Shown here: in pieces, positions 48,850 through 57,145 of the stretch | Numbering within the stretch: position 1 is the stretch's first letter | Layout of the letters: each line of letters starts with the position of its first letter | Assembly: GCA_963719495.1 (NCBI GenBank) | Contig: CAVRCI010000013.1 | Span: 384,001 to 448,000 of the forward strand | Length of the DNA stretch: 64,000 nucleotides | Direction: 5' to 3' | Source of the DNA: an uncultured Verrucomicrobiae bacterium | GTDB taxonomy: Bacteria; Verrucomicrobiota; Verrucomicrobiia; Chthoniobacterales; JAATET01 | Position numbers and translations under genes: made by a program | Notes under the pieces: model-generated | What the model was told of the DNA's origin: nothing | Database searches by the model: none | Seen by the model: only the letters and a program-made list of their open reading frames with translations

Positions 48850-48930
48850 CATCGACACCAATCGGAGAGAGGCCATTCCCCCCATCCACAACCAGGCCGC
48901 GCCTGCTAACCGATCATTCCCAAAAATCCA

Positions 48931-49070
48931 AGTCCGGTAATCGGTTCAGTTCCAAGATCCGTGTTGAGGACAGCCAACAAAACCAGCATTTTTGACCCAA
49001 AAATGGACTGGTCCTTTTTGATCGGAAAGGGATGTCGGGAGGGCTTTCTGAACCAACGAACGGACTGATG
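48931..49070. mobile_element. Degenerate non-autonomous mini-element 1 (RAYT-related ends)
   Basis: Right end 49038-49068 is 30/31 identical to 50089-50119; degenerate left end AGTCCGGTAATCGGTTCAG at 48931-48949. Confidence 0.55.
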
Positions 49071-49165
49071 CCATCGACCCATCGAGACCCCATCGACGGA
49101 CACACGGAATTCGCGAGCAAGATATCGTTTGCCGAGCGCGTCGATACGGCCATAAGTTACAAATT

Positions 49166-49444
49166 ATGGCCATAACATCCATCAAGAGCACTTACTCGCT
49201 CGACATCGACACGACCTCCGCCATTGAAATGCTGGCAAAACGCTGGAGCATTCCCAAATCGCAGGTCATCCGACGGGCAATCCGAGCCCAAGCGCAAGCC
49301 GAGTCGGATTGGGCTCCACCGACCCCCGTATCCCCCGAGGCCGCGGACCGGCTGGCGGCGTTCCAAGCGTTGAGTCGCTCGACCCGCGAGCGCGGAGTCG
49401 ATTTCCAACGGTGGGGACAGGACATCCTCGCAACCCGGCGATGA
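49166..49444 (+). CDS. Ribbon-helix-helix (CopG-like) antitoxin
   Basis: STYSLD...LAKRWSIPKSQVIRRAI; ATGA overlap with the PIN gene. Confidence 0.8.
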   Translation: MAITSIKSTYSLDIDTTSAIEMLAKRWSIPKSQVIRRAIRAQAQAESDWAPPTPVSPEAADRLAAFQALSRSTRERGVDFQRWGQDILATRR

Positions 49445-49839
49445 TCTCACTCGACGCGAACTACCTCGTTGCCGCGATCGATCCAGCAACGTCTCAGCAT
49501 TTGGAAGTCATCGCCCTGCTTGCAGCTGGCGAAATGTTCTCGATGTCGGCGGTGGCCTGGGCCGAATTCCGATGTGGTAGTCAGGAGGGACTCACCTCCG
49601 AGGAAGAGGCGGCGGCCCACGCGATGCTGACTTCCATCGAGCCACTGACTACCGACGACGCCGAGACCGGAGCAGAACTTTTCAACGCAACCGGACGTCG
49701 GCAACGCTCACTCGCGGATTGTCTTGTCGCTGCCACCGCCATGCGTCTGGATCTCGCGTTGGCGACGTTCAATCAGCAGGATTTTTCGAGATTCACAACC
49801 CATGGTCTAGTGATCCACGAGCCGAGCGGAAAATTTTGA
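49441..49839 (+). CDS. vapC: PIN-domain toxin (VapC-like)
   Basis: LDANYL, AWAEF, LADCLVAATA, TFNQQDF motifs. Confidence 0.88.
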   Translation: MISLDANYLVAAIDPATSQHLEVIALLAAGEMFSMSAVAWAEFRCGSQEGLTSEEEAAAHAMLTSIEPLTTDDAETGAELFNATGRRQRSLADCLVAATAMRLDLALATFNQQDFSRFTTHGLVIHEPSGKF

Positions 49840-49964
49840 CCCATCGCCTTTCGCACTCGGAACCCTTAATCCGATCCTTCGCAGGCGACGTGGGCGATCA
49901 ACCGTCGATTGCGAAGCCGCGGCCTGGATTGGCTTCATCATCATCCGGAGAAATGGGGAAATGG

Positions 49965-50123
49965 GGGGTCAGGCGAGATCGCTCGAATGGCGAGTGGCGG
50001 TTGGATTTGCATCCGACGCGACGGCACGGTCGAACGATGCGGACCGGCGGGAAGCTCGGGGATAATTGGACGTGGCCAACGAGTGCAAGGAGGGCTTTCT
50101 GAACCAATGAACGGACTGACCCC
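49965..50123. mobile_element. Non-autonomous mini-element 2 bounded by GGGGTCAG...CTGACCCC
   Basis: Perfect 8-bp terminal inverted repeat; right end GGACTGACCCC matches the RAYT right end. Confidence 0.65.
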
Positions 50124-50207
50124 GGCGAGACCTTTTCCTCGGTTCCTACCGGCGCGGCTTGCGAGGGCGTTCGTCCACCGAGACCAACCGGGGGGTCAAA
50201 ATCCGAC

Positions 50208-51188
50208 TTAGGTCGAGAACCCGGACGGCCCGCGCGTTTGGCGGCGGCGGCGCATCCAGATCATCAAGCCAAGAGAACCGGAGATGACAAACGCGATCGT
50301 CGCCGGCTCGGGAACCGCGGTGAACGTGTGCAACCCGGACGTGAAAAACAAATCGTCGACCTTGCCATCGAAGGAGCTGTTATACGGGAAAACGGAACGT
50401 TCTCCCACGTGGAGCTTCCGCCGAGCATTCGAGATTGCGATGCTCTCGGAGAAAGCAACGGTGGCTAGCTTGGAGCCGTTCAAATAGAGCGTCGCCAGAT
50501 TTTCACCGGGGTTTTCCGCGTAGTCGTAGGCAAACCCGAAGTGATTCCATTCGCCGACGTTGATGGTTCCGACCGGAAGGAAGGCCGAATAGCGGGTCTC
50601 GTTGCCCTCGTTGGAGGCGCTATTGCCCCCGACTTGGATCTCGACCCGCCACTGGTAGGCATTTCCATTCCCGGCGTTCAGCGTTTTCAACAGCCCCAGA
50701 CCAAACGAGTATCCAGCCGAATACGTGCCGCGATCCATCACGACGACGCGCTGCTCGGCGGGATCGATGAGGTTAAAATTGATCCAGGCTCCGCCAGTGA
50801 AATCTTCACCGACGAGATCAAGGGCGTCGTCCGAGGTGTCGTCTGCGTTCCAATAAACGGACGAATTGTCGACCGCGCTCGATCCGCCGGTGGGCAGGTT
50901 CACTGAGTTTCCGTATCCCGAAGTGCCCGGTCGGTCGACCCCGGGAACGAAGCTTGGAGAATTCCCGGCGGACCCGGTCGCGAGTTCGCCGTCGTAGGTT
51001 GCTCCCGAGGCGGCCGAGTTGGCGACGGTCTCACCGGAGGTCTCGTCGAACTTCCAATTCAATTTATCCACCGCGATGCTGTCCGAGACGGGGCGCGCCA
51101 AATTGATGGCGGCGGCGCGGCAGACCAGAGGGTTCGTCAGCAAAGAAAAAGCCGCGACGGCGGAGAAGATGGTCGACTTGGGGTTCAT
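50208..51188 (-). CDS. LamG-like jellyroll protein with PEP-CTERM sorting signal
   Basis: Signal peptide; WKFDE, GEWNH, LYLNG, FDGKVDDL; VPEP + TM + RRRR. Confidence 0.88.
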   Translation of the reverse strand: MNPKSTIFSAVAAFSLLTNPLVCRAAAINLARPVSDSIAVDKLNWKFDETSGETVANSAASGATYDGELATGSAGNSPSFVPGVDRPGTSGYGNSVNLPTGGSSAVDNSSVYWNADDTSDDALDLVGEDFTGGAWINFNLIDPAEQRVVVMDRGTYSAGYSFGLGLLKTLNAGNGNAYQWRVEIQVGGNSASNEGNETRYSAFLPVGTINVGEWNHFGFAYDYAENPGENLATLYLNGSKLATVAFSESIAISNARRKLHVGERSVFPYNSSFDGKVDDLFFTSGLHTFTAVPEPATIAFVISGSLGLMIWMRRRRQTRGPSGFST

Positions 51189-51434
51189 TTAAATTTCGCT
51201 GATTGTCGACACGGCACCGCAGCCGATCCGTCGAGCCGTTTATCCAAAGTTCAGGCGACAGACCGTTGATCCATAAGCTCGTCCCTGCGGGTTTCCTGAC
51301 CGAAGGATGCGTGAAACATTGCTACCCTGTCAAGACTTCGTCGAGCCGTCGCAATGCGGCCGAATCAAATGCCGCAATCCCGGTGAAAGCTGGGTTTAAG
51401 AAGCGGATCGGAAAGGTGAAGGGTGAAGGGTCAG

Positions 51435-51514
51435 GGTGAAGGGTCAGTCCATACTTTTGACCTATCTCCCGAAAGGTGAAGGGTCAGTCCATACTTTTGA
51501 CCTATCTCCCGAAA
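51435..51514 (+). repeat. Exact 40-bp tandem duplication covering the left inverted repeat of the RAYT element
   Basis: GGTGAAGGGTCAGTCCATACTTTTGACCTATCTCCCGAAA x2. Confidence 0.92.
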
Positions 51515-52530
51515 GATGCCGGGGATCTCACGATTCAATCTCGCGCTTTTTCCGCCGAGCTTGCAGGAGGTTGCGCACCGTCCGCCACGACCCCATTTTC
51601 AACTCCCGCGCGATCCAGTCGATCGTCATCGGCGTCTGCGCTCGAAGAACCTCGGCAATCCCTGCTTTGACCGGATGCCCCTTGTTCTCCCGATTCAAAC
51701 GGGCCTCGTCCCAACCCACTTTAGCGAGCTCGCCATCGATGAGAGTCTTTGCGCGAGCCTCATCGCTTTCACGACGCTCGCTAGCCACGTGATTCCGAGC
51801 CGACGGCTTCGCTCGGGAGATCCATTCATCGATTCGATCCCGAAAATCCTCCGCCCCGTAGCGCCATCCAGTCCGAATCTGACGCCATTCGCTCGACTCT
51901 CCATCCGCGCGCCTTGCCTCAATTCGAGCAGAAAACTCCCGCCGCCCCTGGCGATCATCTTTCTCAATTCCGTGCTCGCCGAGCAGACGCGTCACCCTCA
52001 ACCACGTCGGTCGCTGGTCAGGATTTGCCAAATACTTCGGAAAACTGCTCCACGAATACGAATCCAACCGCTCGTCATCGGGGATTAGCCCCGCACGATC
52101 TGGATTGAGATGCACGTAGTCGCAGACCACTCGTAGATAATGATCACTGCTTTCATCGACCAGGATCGATTTATACCTCCCGGCAAACAAATGCCCGCTC
52201 TGCTTGTGGCGAACGTTGAATCGGATGGTGTAGGTGCCCAGTAGCCACTTCATCCCAAGCACGAGATTCGGCTGTGGTGTCTCAACGACCAAATGAAAAT
52301 GATTCTGCATCAGGCAGTAGGCATCGACGATCCAGCCACACTTCTTGCAAGTCGTCGCCAGCGTCTCAATGAACTGCTCGCGATCCTTCTCATCCCAAAA
52401 AGTACTCTCCCTTCGATCTCCGCGGCTCATCAAATGATACCGCGCACCTCCGTATTCAACCCGCAATGGTCTCGCCATTCCCGATCATTTCCCACCGGAG
52501 TCAGACCTGTCAATAGTATGGACTGACCCC
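51481..52530. mobile_element. HUH/Y1 (RAYT-type) element with 21-bp terminal inverted repeats
   Basis: GGGTCAGTCCATACTTTTGAC (51481-51501) vs reverse complement of 52509-52529, 20/21 identical. Confidence 0.85.
51528..52478 (-). CDS. REP-associated tyrosine transposase-like protein (Y1_Tnp) with C-terminal HTH extension
   Basis: MARPLR.E....YH...RG, YCLMQNHFHL (HUH), GHLFAGRYKS, catalytic Tyr in YVHLNP. Confidence 0.92.
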   Translation of the reverse strand: MARPLRVEYGGARYHLMSRGDRRESTFWDEKDREQFIETLATTCKKCGWIVDAYCLMQNHFHLVVETPQPNLVLGMKWLLGTYTIRFNVRHKQSGHLFAGRYKSILVDESSDHYLRVVCDYVHLNPDRAGLIPDDERLDSYSWSSFPKYLANPDQRPTWLRVTRLLGEHGIEKDDRQGRREFSARIEARRADGESSEWRQIRTGWRYGAEDFRDRIDEWISRAKPSARNHVASERRESDEARAKTLIDGELAKVGWDEARLNRENKGHPVKAGIAEVLRAQTPMTIDWIARELKMGSWRTVRNLLQARRKKREIES

Positions 52531-52716
52531 TCTAACTCTAACCTCTAACTGACCCCTCTACTCTCACATCTCCCCCCTGTCTGCCGGCACCCCAAAATGA
52601 GAACTGCTGCGTTGGCGCGGGACTTGAGTCGGATTACGCACCGAGGAAAGCGCCGTTGCAGGCTCGGAATCACGTTGCGAGTTGCGTAAAACAAAACTTT
52701 GCGATACGGTTTGGAG

Positions 52717-54165
52717 ATGGCTCGAGCTATCGCTATCGTTCTCGGGTTGCTCGTCGTTCCGCTGACAGCTCTGGACGCGATCTCCCAAACTGTTCCGGGC
52801 GTCTACGTGACGGAGGTCGGTCCCCCGCCGTCGGTCGTCGGATTGTCGACGTCGCAGACCGCCATCGTCGGGCGCTTCGCGAAGGGTCCCGTGAACGTAT
52901 CCGTAAACGTGACTTCAGCTGAGTTTCTGACGGAATTTGGTTCGGGCGGGAGTGCGGGCGAGTTGGCGACGTATCCGGCAGAGGTGCAGGCTAGGCTCTA
53001 TTTTGCCAACGGCGGGAGCGAACTTCAGGTCGTCCGGCTGCCTCCCAAGATGCCGCTGCCGGAAGCGCTGCTGGGCGAGGCGGAGAAGTTGACCGGACTC
53101 TACGCGCTGGAGCCGAGCAGTGATTTGCGGATCTTGCTGGCACCCGAGATCAGCACTCTTGGCGCGGTAAATTTTGCGACGGTGTTCCCGATTTACCTCC
53201 AGTTTGCCACGGAGCGCGGTGTGTTTTTCATCGTGGACCCGCCACCGACGGCGACCACGGTGGACGCGGCGATCGACTGGGCGAGCGCCTCGATCCCGGT
53301 CGATGCTGCGGCGTGTGCGGCGTATTTCCCATCTCTGTTGGTGACCTTTCCGGGACTGGACGTGCCGCACATCACCGCGCCAACGAGCGGGTCGATGGCC
53401 GGGATTTTTGTGACCAACGACGCGAACGTCGGCATCTGGAACCAACCGGCGGGAACGTCGCTGTCAACGAATGCGCTGGGAGTGACACTGACCTTGGACG
53501 CGGCAGACGGGGCGAGATTGAACGACGGGGCGATCAATTGGATCCGAGACATCGAGGGATTTGGGGTCGTCCCGTGGGGTTCCCGCACGCTGGACCGGTC
53601 GAATCTCGCAAACCGCGAAATCGGCGCCGTCCGTTTCCTGGGCTGGACGATGGCTTCGATCCAACGCTCTTTGGCCTTTGCCGCTTACGAAGAAAACGAT
53701 GTTGCGCTCTGGCTCGATATCCGCAGTTCGGTAAGCGCCTTCTTCAACGATCTCTGGCAGTCCGGAGCCTTGGAGGGGGAGACGGCGGAAGAATCCTACA
53801 CCGTGACCTGCGACGCAACCACAACGTCTCCGGCTGACGTCGCAGCCCACCGCGTGAATCTCGACTACGAACTCCAGTTGGACGGCCCGGTGAGCCGATC
53901 GCTGACGGCGATGACGCTGGACCCCGACGCGCCGGTGCCGCGACCGCAGGTTTATCTGATCGGATTCCCGTCGGTGCCTCGGCTGACCTTCGACACGGTG
54001 CCGGGATTTAAATACACGGTCGAAACCGACGAGGGGATGTCGACCGAAGAATGGGAACCCCTCGCCCCCGTCTTCTCCGGGTATGACGGCTGGCGGCACG
54101 TAACCATCCCCGCATTGGCAACGGCGGAGTTCTACCGAGTGCAAGTCGCAACTGGGAATCCCTGA
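52717..54165 (+). CDS. Contractile tail sheath family protein with N-terminal signal peptide and non-sheath C-terminal beta domain
   Basis: PGVYVTE, TAIVG...KGP, YFANGG, AAYFP, GIWNQPAG, INWIR, WGSRTL, FEEN-like YEEND, LWQSGAL.G, CDATTT. Confidence 0.82.
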   Translation: MARAIAIVLGLLVVPLTALDAISQTVPGVYVTEVGPPPSVVGLSTSQTAIVGRFAKGPVNVSVNVTSAEFLTEFGSGGSAGELATYPAEVQARLYFANGGSELQVVRLPPKMPLPEALLGEAEKLTGLYALEPSSDLRILLAPEISTLGAVNFATVFPIYLQFATERGVFFIVDPPPTATTVDAAIDWASASIPVDAAACAAYFPSLLVTFPGLDVPHITAPTSGSMAGIFVTNDANVGIWNQPAGTSLSTNALGVTLTLDAADGARLNDGAINWIRDIEGFGVVPWGSRTLDRSNLANREIGAVRFLGWTMASIQRSLAFAAYEENDVALWLDIRSSVSAFFNDLWQSGALEGETAEESYTVTCDATTTSPADVAAHRVNLDYELQLDGPVSRSLTAMTLDPDAPVPRPQVYLIGFPSVPRLTFDTVPGFKYTVETDEGMSTEEWEPLAPVFSGYDGWRHVTIPALATAEFYRVQVATGNP

Positions 54166-54253
54166 CGACAAAATGCCATCACTCCGACGACCAGCGGAGC
54201 GATGACGGATTGTGCCGTCGGAGTACTGGGAATACTTAGTACTGGGACTACTG

Positions 54254-54440
54254 GGGGTGAGTGTGCAAAAGCAAATTTTTAGTTCTCAACATCTACGCTA
54301 CGCACCCACTTGACGAATTCTTCCGGCACCTTGCGCAATCTCGTCACTGCATCCGAAATTCCATGCTGCTGTCCGGCGTTTGCCGCGCTTTTCATTTCCA
54401 TTCGATCGCGATCCACCCGGCTAATGGGAAGCGCGCCTGT
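54254..54440 (-). pseudogene. 3' remnant of a second RAYT-type gene with its GGGGTGAG terminal motif
   Basis: Frameshifted WIA/DRMEMKSAANAGQQ...EN* resembles the WIARELKMGS HTH of the intact copy; same gene/end geometry. Confidence 0.5.
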
Positions 54441-54655
54441 ATCCCGAAGAGATTCTATCCTGTCACGCTGATACAACCGTCTTCGGGGTTGGTTCTTTCG
54501 TTGGCTCCCATCCCAGGGTAGCCCGCGCGACGGGCAACCCTGAGCTGAACGATTCAACGCCGGTTGCGTTGGCGTTCCCTCGGTCGAATTCCCGACCAGC
54601 TTTCCATCACTCCCGCCATCGCGAGGGAGCGATTTTAAGCGTAAGAGAGAAGTGA

Positions 54656-55078
54656 TTACGCCGATAGATGCAGGAAGTTCAGGCCGGGGAAGCGGGTGAA
54701 GTCGGCGTCGAAGGAGACGAGGCGGCAACCGCCGGCGAGGGCGAAGGCGGCGAGGTAAGCGTCCGTCCAGAGGCGATGGGGAAAATGCGGGACGGTTGTC
54801 AGGTTGTAGAATTGGTTTTGAAGACCAGTGGGTTCATCCAGATAGAGATGATGGGGATGTTTCAAAAATTGGTGATAGATGTCCCAAATTTCCGGGTTGG
54901 ATAGCGGGCCATGTAAGACTCCCGGCACGGTGCCGATGCGCAGGAAACCCATCATGGTCACACGACAAAACGCCTTTTTGGTTCCCGGATTTTTCTCCCA
55001 ATAATCCACAGCGCCCGCGTGGAGGCTGTGATTTTCATCAATAACGGCGAGCCAAAGGTTGATGTCCGGCAAATCCAT
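54656..55078 (-). CDS. vapC: VapC-family PIN ribonuclease toxin
   Basis: LPDINLW, GFLRI, TDAYLAAFA, VSFDADF.RFPGL motifs. Confidence 0.9.
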   Translation of the reverse strand: MDLPDINLWLAVIDENHSLHAGAVDYWEKNPGTKKAFCRVTMMGFLRIGTVPGVLHGPLSNPEIWDIYHQFLKHPHHLYLDEPTGLQNQFYNLTTVPHFPHRLWTDAYLAAFALAGGCRLVSFDADFTRFPGLNFLHLSA

Positions 55079-55384
55079 TCAGGATTTCCTTTGGGATTCT
55101 TCGATCACCCGCCGATGTCCGGCGAGGTCTTCTTCCTCGAGCATGGCGAAGAGTTCCGCATTCGTCCGATAAGGAGTCGGAGGCGCGCCGGGTACGCGCT
55201 CAAAGGCTACGGGGAGCGGATATGGATTTTCAGGCGGAATCGCCCTTGCTGGCTGGTCCAGGGAACCCCGCAAACCGGCTTCGATGTAGGTCGCAAAAAG
55301 GTCTTTGAGCGTGACCCCTTGCTGGACGGCGCGGGTTTTCACTTTTTTGAAGAGCGCGTCCGGTAAATCAAGGGTCGTTCTCAT
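55079..55384 (-). CDS. VapB-like RHH antitoxin
   Basis: MRTTLDLPDALFKKVKTRA...TLKDL; abuts the toxin. Confidence 0.85.
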   Translation of the reverse strand: MRTTLDLPDALFKKVKTRAVQQGVTLKDLFATYIEAGLRGSLDQPARAIPPENPYPLPVAFERVPGAPPTPYRTNAELFAMLEEEDLAGHRRVIEESQRKS

Positions 55385-55474
55385 CATTGAGATGATAGCG
55401 TGAAAATGCGGAAATGGAAAGATGCGTTTACGCGAATAGGAGGCTGGAGCCGCCCGGGAAAGGGTCAAGGGCAA

Positions 55475-55566
55475 GGGTCAGTCCGTTCATTGGTTCGGAA
55501 TCGCCCGCCCGAAGGACCCACAGATTCCGCAGCACGCCCTTTCGAACCAAGCCACGGCTTGACACC
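55475..55566. mobile_element. Non-autonomous mini-element 3
   Basis: Left end GGGTCAGTCCGTTCATTGGTTC is the reverse complement of the 50101-50122 end; degenerate right end at 55541-55566. Confidence 0.6.
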
Positions 55567-55659
55567 AAGGTCTATTTTTCTGTGGGCGTGAGCCGTTGAG
55601 CAGGAGGAGAGCTGGTTTTTGGTAAACAAAAAGAGCGAATGCCGATGGGATGGAGTGGG

Positions 55660-56700
55660 ATGAAAGACACCCCACCATCGAAGAAGCGGCAGAAGTTGGA
55701 AGCACGAGTGGCCACGGCGCAAGAAGTGGCCAGTTTTGACGAGAGTCTAAGGGAGCATCATTATTTGGGGGCGGGGCGGGCGGTGGGTGATAGCCGGCGG
55801 CTGATTGTGGAGATCGAAGGCCGGGCGGTGGCCCTGCTGGTGTGGGGACCGAGCTGCTACGCGCTCAAGGATCGGGATCTGTGGATTGGCTGGAGCGCGC
55901 CGCAGCGCGTGGAACGGCTCAAGTTGATCGTGCAGAACCGCCGCTTTCTGGTGCTCGCGGCCAAGGGCTAGGAGCCCAATCTGGCCAGCGCGGCGATGGG
56001 AGCGGCGTTGCGGGCCTTGCCAGGACAATGGCTGGAGCGCTTTGGCTACCGGCCACTTTTGGCGGAAAGTTTCACCGACCCGGAGAGCCACGCGGGCACC
56101 TGTTATCGTGGCCAGCAACTGGGCGGCGGTGGGAATGAGGGAGGGATACAGTCGGCACCGGGCGGATTTTTACATCCCCAACGAACGGCCCAAGAAATTC
56201 TGGCTGCGAGAGTTGGAGGTCGGTGACCGCGCGCGGCTGCGGGCCTGCGAGTTGCCGCCCGAGTGCCGGGGTGCGCTCATCGCCGCGCCGGGTGGACTGA
56301 CCCTCGCCCAGCACGAAGACGGCTCCCCCCAAGCCATCGCCGTCTACGACCAGAAAGAAGGCACCCAGCGCTGCGAGCAAAGCGCCGCCCTGGCCCTGCT
56401 CGAAAGCCTGCCCGCCTTGGGCGGAAAAATCGTCACCGCCGACCCCCTTCACTGCCAGAAGAAAACCGCTCGGGCCATCGTGGAAAAAAGCGGCGACTAC
56501 CTCTTCGGCATCGAAGGCAATCAACCCACCCTGCTGGCCCACGCCGAAGGCTTCGACGCCTTGGAGAGCCCCCCCTTTTAACCCACACCCAAGCCGGACG
56601 CGGCCGCATCGAAGTGCGTTCCCTCCACGCCTTCACCTTCGAAGCCACCACCGCCGACTTCCCCTTCGCCCCCACCCTCATTGTCCTGCGCTCCGAGCGA
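55660..56700 (+). pseudogene. Decayed DUF4338 (DruA-like)/ISAs1-family transposase
   Basis: HHYLG, RD.WIGW, N.RFL, ESFTDP...GTCY then TADPLHCQ, DYLF...GNQPTL, GRIEVR; in-frame TAG at 55969-55971, frameshifts, apparent internal deletion. Confidence 0.8.
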
Positions 56701-56910
56701 TTCCAGACCGGGGAATTTGCCCTCCGGATGGACCTTTCGAAGCTATCATCGGACCGGCTCCGGATCCGCGTTCTGACTCGCGTCAGCATCGGGAGCAATC
56801 TCGCCGCGTCTGGCCGGTGGGCCGAACGCGTTGGATTGGTGGAATCGGATCGAACCGGAAAGCCCCAATCGAAGACGATTCCGAGTCATGGAGGGCGCGT
56901 CGCTCCTGAC

Positions 56911-57145
56911 TTATCCACACTCTTATGGATTAATTTTTTGGATGGGTCCGATTTCTTAATAATCTTAATGCTGTGAACAAGTCGGGAAAACCCTGTTCCC
57001 CACCCCAACCAAGCCTGTTCCACGGCCATTTTGCCATGTGAATGAATTTCGATCCATCCGTCGGGCTTGGGCAAAACCGAGGGTCGCGGCGGCTTTCGGC
57101 TCATTCGTTCAGACCGACTCCCGAGTTGTTCACAAACCATTCACC
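56911..57145. promoter_or_regulatory. DnaA-box cluster with AT-rich tract (candidate oriC)
   Basis: TTATCCACA 56911-56919; TGTGAACAA 56972-56980; TGTGAATGA 57037-57045; TTGTTCACA 57126-57134; AT-rich 56923-56970. Confidence 0.6.

Follow-up and report, generated by a model that had tools for sequence, protein, structure and literature searches.

One-ended joining at TIRtron ends as the probable origin of an accessory island in a Verrucomicrobiae bacterium

An accessory gene island in an uncultured Verrucomicrobiae bacterium is probably a pile-up site, built through one-ended joining at the ends of TIRtrons. The island lies in a window of 64,000 nucleotides, the whole stretch of DNA analysed, from a genome here labelled G000; G001 to G005 are five congeners, and C-numbers denote contigs. 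Junctions at TIRtron ends lie some 5 nt to the 5' side of the GGGG run, and their other side can fall anywhere. The outer bases, about five, travel with the end and do not come from the target, and whole elements carry no target duplication. This pattern of scars suggests that the TIRYT protein cleaves some five bases beyond each repeat and links the end to almost any DNA.

TIRtrons and TIRYTs were described in 2013 (Di Nocera et al. 2013, PMC3733652). They correspond to TnpA-Y1 subclass 2.1, or RAYT group 1, which is the second largest Y1 subclass and occurs in 14.9% of the strains sampled (Quentin et al. 2018, 10.1101/279083). As in the island, the described TIRtron places a Y1 HUH gene with a long C-terminal extension between TIRs with GGGGWSAS; as in G000, solo, dimeric, and grouped TIR copies occur genome-wide (PMC3733652). 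The motif GGGG[AT][CG]A[CG], which the initial annotation gives for some subclasses, agrees with this literature. The papers found on subclass 2.1 name no substrate, cut site, or function. Their accounts of TIRtrons and TIRYTs give no cut site, stutter, carried flank, or cargo, whereas G000 shows both stutter and flank, and they ask for in vitro work; a literature search covering few subscription journals turned up no report of stutter, a cut site, or cargo at TIRYT ends. The junction offset and the carried flank of this known element are here measured from genomic scars.

The distance from the ATPase stop codon to the first DnaA box is 8,061 nt in G000 versus 18–42 nt in G002–G005. Aligning the locus across related genomes, the check proposed with the initial annotation, thus finds the island missing from four of the five congeners, with breakpoints that map to ends; in G001, a related end follows the same ATPase stop at a distance of about 85 nt. 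The island holds one intact TIRtron along with stumps of several end families (Table 1). Its gene order and strands, including the mixed orientation of the cargo, are as first described, and the array is real, although less regular than had been claimed. The right edge is an IS remnant and not a TIRtron end. Copies of the ISAs1-like element on C2 (94%) start at 55565. An Rfam search returned no matches.

Table 1. Features of the island and its right-hand neighbour (positions in the window)
Feature	Position	Strand	Remarks
Accessory island	48850..56908	.	Between ABC ATPase gene and DnaA-box cluster; ~8 kb
Decayed A-family end with stutter remnants	49038..49096	-	Right side of "mini-element 1"
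vapBC-like pair 1	49166..49839	+	92 aa without clear family; 132 aa PIN, PF01850 E 2.8e-12
"Mini-element 2"	49947..50123	.	Head-to-head fusion: unassigned end (+, 49965), A-family end (-, 50123)
LamG-like PEP-CTERM gene, cargo	50208..51188	-	TIGR02595 19.3 bits vs cut-off 16
Stutter, TIRtron 3' end	51415..51479	+	Four 5-nt flank copies separated by truncated repeats; from sequence
Intact TIRtron, C family	51480..52530	.	Inverted arms 51478-51501 and 52509-52532
TIRYT gene	51528..52478	-	316 aa, PF01797 above cut-off, helical C-terminal extension
Stutter, TIRtron 5' end	52531..52560	-	Adjoins intact TIRtron
50-bp stump, probably IS end, multicopy	52561..52610	.	Cut 4 nt beyond outermost stutter unit
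Sheath-like secreted protein block	52610..54195	+	ORF 52717-54165; common to G001
D-family end	54224..54418	+	Stutter 54224-54253, then 165-nt 3' stump of its TIRYT gene
vapBC pair 2	54656..55387	-	TIGR00028 106.9 bits vs cut-off 73.6
Mini-element 3	55456..55565	+	A-family end with stutter; right end decayed, adjoins broken ISAs1-like element
Broken ISAs1-like element	55565..56700	+	Adjoins mini-element 3; NF033564 below cut-off
DnaA-box cluster and AT-rich stretch, possible oriC	56909..57140	.	Outside island

Three features had gone unremarked in the initial annotation: the stutter at the ends, the 50-bp IS stump, and the DnaA-box cluster at the island's right edge. Copies of the stump on C1, C2, C3, C7, C13, and C15 run on past the cut. 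The DnaA-box cluster is the top-ranked 300-bp window of the genome (5 boxes) and is kept in all five congeners. It is a possible oriC; box density supports this role, and GC skew, which shows no turn at the cluster, does not.

The Y1/HUH element is intact, as the initial annotation had it. Its 24-nt arms are 92% complementary, with the first G replaced by A in one arm, and C15 carries a 95.8% copy that aligns from G-run to G-run. Flanking TIRs with the motif are present at all six full genes in G000. The TIRYT catalytic motifs are intact in alignment: H60-F-H62 and Y121VHLNP (class 2 Y---NP). The structural model (pLDDT 81) finds its best PDB match in TnpA-REP, 4ER8 (E 6e-7), and shows a confident helical domain at residues 239–315; none of 13 aligned TIRYT proteins has a Pfam match to HTH or Bac_DnaA_C. 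The stutter at the 3' end holds truncated repeats of 2, 8, and 35 nt, with periods of 13 and 40.

The earlier sequence matches among the other ends stand: 49038–49068 and 50089–50119 are identical at 30 of 31 positions, 55475–55496 is the exact inverse of 50101–50122, and the "RAYT remnant" (54254–54418) derives from the 3' end of a different TIRtron family and matches a TIRtron end on C1 at 84%. Mini-element 1 has one recognisable, decayed end, made of repeated units of 5-nt flank plus G-run; its left side has no recognisable end and no homologue in G000 or the fetched loci. Mini-element 2, first taken for one element, is really two unrelated ends fused, whose arms have only an 8-nt core in common; its A side has inner homologues (71–80%) at other solo ends. 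Mini-element 3 does have full-length copies (77–82%) on C7, C13, and C15 and in G003, and one short-read contig is identical to 55384–55592. With one mini-element one-ended, one a fusion, and one decayed, the three therefore do not form a single MITE family, mini-element 3 with its copies being the exception.

Where an uninterrupted homologue was available, 44 of 73 junctions fell 3–7 nt outside the GGGG run, compared with 2/26 and 2/21 in controls at the same positions (-7 to -3). Local comparators (20/29) and distant ones (24/44) both showed it. The offset is a spread, from -3 to -11, and not a single position; homology rarely reaches the G-run, and only five junctions lie at -1 or further in. 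This test used a breakpoint filter as well as controls, an earlier pass having contained 34 rows of 102 without a breakpoint (self or full-length matches), which were dropped; the congener regions compared had been picked around ends. About five outer bases therefore go with the end, which is joined to DNA of any sort; on the non-end side, junctions fall at arbitrary places. In view of the offsets, the reading of the flank as target sequence was rejected. Target-site duplication was likewise rejected: it is absent in 60 of 65 external elements, with none of at least 5 nt, and in all 175 opposite-strand pairs in G000. A comparison of high-identity blocks, with 24/58 block ends near TIRs versus 49/515, was set aside, since its counts include the elements themselves and regions picked around ends. 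Reads in three contig sets of low depth (best share of words 0.37; X2 and X3 uninformative) gave no joints or circle junctions at ends. The claim that the ends are recombination junctions is thus borne out by the breakpoints, by the island's absence from most congeners, and by a cargo gene lying between outward-facing ends at a non-orthologous G001 locus.

Stutter, meaning about five flank bases plus a truncated repeat, occurs at 53 of 150 ends in G000, versus 1–12 of 149–150 at offset controls, in a count that took in 13 "family B" ends. (Family B was rejected as a TIR family, being an IS4 element with an 11-bp repeat inserted into A ends, and was left out of the junction and end-pair analyses: offsets, 41 loci, and outward-facing pairs.) A 5-nt flank fits 105 of 172 duplication events (null mean 54, maximum 70 of 10,000), drawn from G000, congeners, and other Verrucomicrobiota; kin among these are not independent. 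The repeat part is 6–8 nt in 59 of these 105, and repeat parts overall run continuously from 1 to over 700 nt; 56 of the 172 events lack microhomology. A C|T preference at the inner junction was tried and rejected: A|G occurs in 21/105, and no dinucleotide dominates. One duplication, of 1,721 bp, begins at -5 relative to an end, and both C15 and G001 carry ladders of TIRYT copies that are truncated on the 5' side. In distant lineages, stutter is rarer (14/130 element ends), and the unambiguous events favour 4 nt (5/9), with none at 5. Left–right flank symmetry within elements is found at -1, -2, and -6 only. The outer 5 nt often differ between copies of one element, for example those on C13 and C15; re-cutting or turnover must therefore be invoked.

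Ends number 87 sites in 41 loci of G000. A genome scan, also proposed at the outset, counted 93 occurrences of GGGTCAGTCC in 4.54 Mb. The motif is thus not peculiar to this locus, but it is clustered and not uniform: 78 loci would be expected, and the minimum in 2,000 uniform draws was 69. Four solo ends occupy equivalent positions in the two genomes G000 and G001, where exchanged cargo was not seen.

The cargo itself is varied. Both vapC genes encode PIN proteins, as annotated, the second scoring above its TIGR00028 cut-off. For the LamG PEP-CTERM gene, the PEP-CTERM assignment holds, whereas LamG comes from Atlas (Laminin_G_3/PEP-CTERM clusters, 0.98) and not from Pfam. The tail-sheath assignment has an Atlas score of 0.81 and weak Pfam matches below cut-off. 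No homologue of vapBC pair 1 or the PEP-CTERM gene was found in 30 relatives (9 candidates each); vapBC pair 2 has a 65% homologue in G007 and, in G004, a fragment (82%) that lies about 135 nt inside an end. Of the four cargo units, the sheath block alone recurs nearly unchanged: G001 carries it at another locus (C13:25630–27196, 96% DNA identity), and it is present in 1 of 16 other family genomes. In G001, one breakpoint of the block lies 6 nt from a stuttered end.

These observations can be joined in a single scheme, in which the acting protein is assumed to be TIRYT from its linkage with the ends. TIRYT would nick the strand that carries GGGG, about 5 nt beyond the repeat, holding the 5' end as a phosphotyrosine. 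The freed 3'-OH would be extended by host polymerase through the end for a variable distance, and TIRYT would then join the held 5' end to any 3'-OH offered. Joining in place would yield products from stutters of 11–13 nt up to 1.7-kb duplications, as well as truncated gene ladders; a template switch, or joining at another site, would attach the end to foreign DNA, with genes deleted, truncated, or brought in. With repeated events from both strands, genes could end up flanked by outward-facing ends, and stumps could become fused into "mini-elements"; other IS elements (IS4, IS110) would then insert into the ends. Cargo would move incidentally, with boundaries that vary. (If import took a single step, an identical flank should precede and follow the cargo on one strand, which was not seen in the window.)

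The same chemistry has been proposed for BIME amplification by TnpA-REP: nick, 3'-OH priming, attack on the first phosphotyrosine, and tandem gain (Ton-Hoang et al. 2012, PMC3333891 Fig. 7B). That model relies on GTAG hairpins and on C|T cuts spanning more than 400 nt, whereas TIRtron ends lack REP hairpins and have one junction near -5, the other being free and reaching kilobases. No GTAG hairpin was found at the ends, and folding was weak (-3.9 and -5.8 kcal/mol, without shuffle control). IS91 and ISCR also resemble TIRtrons: an HUH enzyme, no target duplication, a fixed start with variable stop, and mobilised adjacent DNA (PMC13181058, PMC3575428), the lack of target duplication and the fixed-start, variable-stop products both being found here. 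However, the two ends of IS91, oriIS and terIS, are dissimilar, and it has a target tetranucleotide, whereas TIRtron ends are inverted and near-identical, each acting alone, with a partner sequence that looks arbitrary. IS200/IS605 elements retain target directly 5' of the element end, unlike nearly all junctions here. Prochlorosin arrays likewise hold full and C-terminally remaining subclass 2.1 TnpA-REP copies among cargo genes, but with a single cargo family and no inverted repeats found (10.1101/2020.03.09.984088). Laurenceau et al. propose diversifying recombination there; an authors' note withdraws the evidence for causality.

The initial annotation offered an integron-like reading, with ends as paired att sites and cargo excised and reinserted as defined cassettes, stabilised by TA modules. 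Integrons do alternate accessory genes with short repeats (PMC3575428), as the ends and cargo alternate here; moreover, G000 has 16 outward-facing end pairs no more than 6 kb apart, the sheath gene has ends on both sides in two genomes, and a 2.1-kb AAA_21 module in the G001 array is missing from the orthologous G000 array. This reading is nevertheless quite unlikely. The sheath block differs between the two genomes in its boundaries and in the end families that bracket it, an NHL gene in G001 is cut partway through at an end, non-end sides are arbitrary, 24 of the 41 loci are single sites, and 26 of 38 long external loci lack another end. There is no fixed entry site, adjacent intI, common orientation, or conserved cassette boundary. 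(The G000 intI is on C2 with no TIR end nearby; a simple attC scan, run without positive control, gave none in the island and none near intI.) No circle junction appeared in the low-cover reads. TA stabilisation lacks support from outside the window: an end lies within 1 kb of four of the 24 PIN genes, but two of these are the window's own, and the count elsewhere is 2/22 (p=0.20). Differing boundaries and truncated genes fit one-ended nick-copy-rejoin, not site exchange.

A passive hotspot, in which horizontally acquired genes and IS debris collect, TIRtrons insert independently, and stutter arises by replication slippage at G-runs, would account for the ISAs1 and other IS stump in the island, for end clusters elsewhere rich in IS4, IS110, IS481, and IS630-like transposases, for the vertical retention of some solo ends, and for the 20 of 24 PIN genes away from ends. 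It is unlikely all the same, given the duplications without microhomology, the peaked flank length, and a 96% sheath block flanked by ends in two species only about 80% alike in core genes; simple insertion, moreover, predicts homology to the element edge, true for only 5/73. A two-strand version would have a dimer make a staggered cut, one strand being cleaved at about -5 and its partner at +6 to +8, with fill-in and rejoining producing the 11–13-nt unit and break repair the long events. The 59 events with 6–8-nt repeat parts suit it, but the continuous range of repeat parts, the lack of a dominant dinucleotide at the inner cut, and the single-strand activity of known Y1 enzymes (PMC3333891) make it improbable.

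For one-ended joining, the scars predict that the GGGG strand is nicked about 5 nt to the 5' side of GGGG, that the flank is carried along, and that the choice of 3'-OH acceptor depends little on sequence. More tentatively, TIRYTs may form a widespread Y1 HUH gene-capture system, in which every inverted repeat serves by itself as a rolling-circle-like origin; its nicked end, with about five outer bases, could be ligated to any free 3'-OH. By this route, arrays of ends would take up, shorten, and rearrange genes across species (for secreted proteins, TA modules, and defence), with no need for att-site exchange or a tyrosine recombinase. One-ended joining, if right, would account for truncated-gene ladders such as those at prochlorosin loci, and would add a third route, beside integrons and ISCR, of gathering accessory genes into arrays.

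The intact element of the island (the stretch between the ABC ATPase gene and a DnaA-box cluster) carries a TIRYT gene between terminal inverted repeats (TIRs). In alignment, the 316-residue protein has the motifs H60-F-H62 and Y121---NP; E. coli TnpA-REP is the best match of its modelled structure. Pfam did not detect its predicted C-terminal helix-turn-helix. The nearest homologues among the matches listed are mostly from Verrucomicrobiota MAGs. The inverted ends agree with GGGGWSAS, the motif given for TIRtron ends in PMC3733652; TIRtrons are equated with subclass 2.1 (10.1101/279083). The element class is already known. In the source genome (G000) six TIRYT genes are full, and every one of them has a TIR family or copy of its own.

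Ends number 130 in this genome, or 87 once neighbours are collapsed. They fall in 41 loci, where 78 would be expected; 24 of the 41 are single-site. The other 17 are multi-site and include the window, which is therefore no unique platform. For four solo ends, the congener G001 has an end at the matching position.

A-family TIR ends are insertion sites of an IS4-family element (over cut-off for NF033592) and of its miniature of about 280 bp, the direct repeat being 11 bp; this resembles the targeting of REPs by IS elements. IS110 lies within TIR ends at four places, the repeat being split just past the core. Of the full IS481 copies seen, four in number, each terminates no more than about 45 nt from a TIR end, and three share the same junction.

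In the window, genes and ends follow the order that the initial annotation gave. Its three "mini-elements" do not form one family: the first has one decayed end, the second is a fusion of two unrelated ends, and the third alone has full-length copies elsewhere. The remnant is a TIRtron 3' end, from another family than the intact element. The LamG and sheath labels of the cargo have a weak or Atlas-only basis.

From ATPase stop to DnaA box is 18-42 nt in four congeners (G002-G005), versus 8,061 nt here. In G001 a related end lies about 85 nt past the same stop, in a rearranged locus with a 183-bp duplication that takes in the 3' end of the ATPase gene. The DnaA-box cluster, 37 kb from dnaA, has the highest box density in the genome and is kept in five congeners; because GC skew does not turn there, it is only a possible oriC. 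TIR ends were seen in the adjoining gap in two of six congeners.

Features of the window and of other contigs (G000 unless stated)
Feature	Contig or locus	Position	Remark
Sheath-like gene	window	52717-54165	stand-alone; apparent signal peptide, extra C-terminal domain; neighbourhood showed neither tube nor baseplate genes
TIRtron remnant	window	54254
Multi-hairpin stretch	window	54424-54621	between remnant and vapC2; full length single-copy; 78-79% matches in G005
ISAs1-like element	window	55639-56700	broken; first ORF a DruA match (PF14236); related DruA + DDE_Tnp_1_assoc fusion on C2
DnaA-box cluster	window	56909-57140
IS4-family insertions	C7	41468-43452
	C2	755407-757261
	C8	178652-178929
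IS110	C9	184096-185718
	C14	87209-90818
	C2	757350-758962
IS481, full copies	C13	244958, 309571, 350482, 502745
Integron integrase	C2	176417	over TIGR02249 cut-off
Second integron integrase	C1	371896	just under cut-off
End	C13	474184
End, G001	L269	8399	about same position as C13:474184; end families differ

Junctions could be placed for 73 of 234 outermost ends, those whose outer DNA has an uninterrupted homologue. Homology stops 3-7 nt ahead of the G-run in 44 and extends to it in 5; controls gave 2/26 and 2/21 (Fisher p 2e-6 and 4e-5, overstated owing to kinship). It follows that the outer bases are part of the end, whereas the cut points in the partner are arbitrary. Within the window, the 5' end of the intact TIRtron truncates a probable IS, of which 50 bp remain. 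Target duplication is absent in 60 of 65 whole elements. Outer bases frequently differ among near-identical elements, which counts against a rigid rule and requires variable re-cutting.

Many ends also carry a "stutter", in which outer flank bases and a truncated repeat (mostly 6-8 nt) are duplicated. Exact duplications cross 53 of 150 G000 ends, 5 flank bases fitting in 37; offset controls gave 1-12 of about 150. At GGGGTCR sites, stutter occurs in 75 of 2,509 in G000 (mostly chance occurrences of the motif; 0.5-1.3% for control motifs). Congener regions have it at 59 of 338 such sites (controls 3/1,011), external loci at 38 of 544 (controls 29/2,785). Pooled, a 5-nt flank fits 105 of 172 events (null, 54), with a tendency to 4 nt in distant lineages. 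The repeat part extends to units of 63-789 nt (87-100% alike) on contig C15 and to a 1,721-bp duplication on C14. One window stutter is matched exactly by a short-read contig, which speaks against an assembly artefact. In outer flanks of external loci L068-L226, G-N-A-A-A is favoured ahead of the G-run at both ends.

The sheath block, found in only one (G001) of 16 other family genomes, is 96% identical there, versus about 80% for core genes. Its site in G001 is non-orthologous, and the outward-facing ends that bracket it belong to two other families. A D-end-plus-vapBC module (95% identity) is shared with G001 in another context; an AAA_21 module of G001 is missing from the orthologous G000 array. 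Ends also flank an NHL/FG-GAP block in G001, where one NHL gene breaks off partway along at an end. No close copies of the other three window cargoes were found. The initial annotation tied toxin-antitoxin modules to the array; enrichment of such genes at ends was not shown.

At TIRtron ends, then, there is a junction rule, a carried flank, a variable partner and no target duplication. By analogy, a one-ended mechanism probably operates: the end would be nicked near -5, the 3'-OH would prime synthesis, and the phosphotyrosine would perform the rejoining. The analogues are the BIME amplification model (PMC3333891) and one-ended transposition of IS91 (PMC13181058).

Precise, integron-like exchange, the initial reading of cargo lying between ends, seems quite unlikely: in G001, 6 nt separate the right boundary of the sheath block from the outermost stutter unit, and 28 more bases are kept in G000. 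The genome's integron integrase has no link to TIR ends. A simple scan, which had no positive control, gave no attC by the integrases or in the island. A passive hotspot with slippage we regard as unlikely; microhomology is absent in 56 of the 172 pooled events. A staggered cut of two strands is an improbable reading. The one-ended mechanism is the reading we prefer.

One earlier study proposed that subclass 2.1 is associated with arrays of cargo and with gene stumps, causality afterwards being left open (10.1101/2020.03.09.984088); our literature searches found no paper on stutter or cut site at TIRYT ends. New here are a measurement of the junction offset, the flank carried by the end, and a cargo shared across species whose boundaries are unequal.
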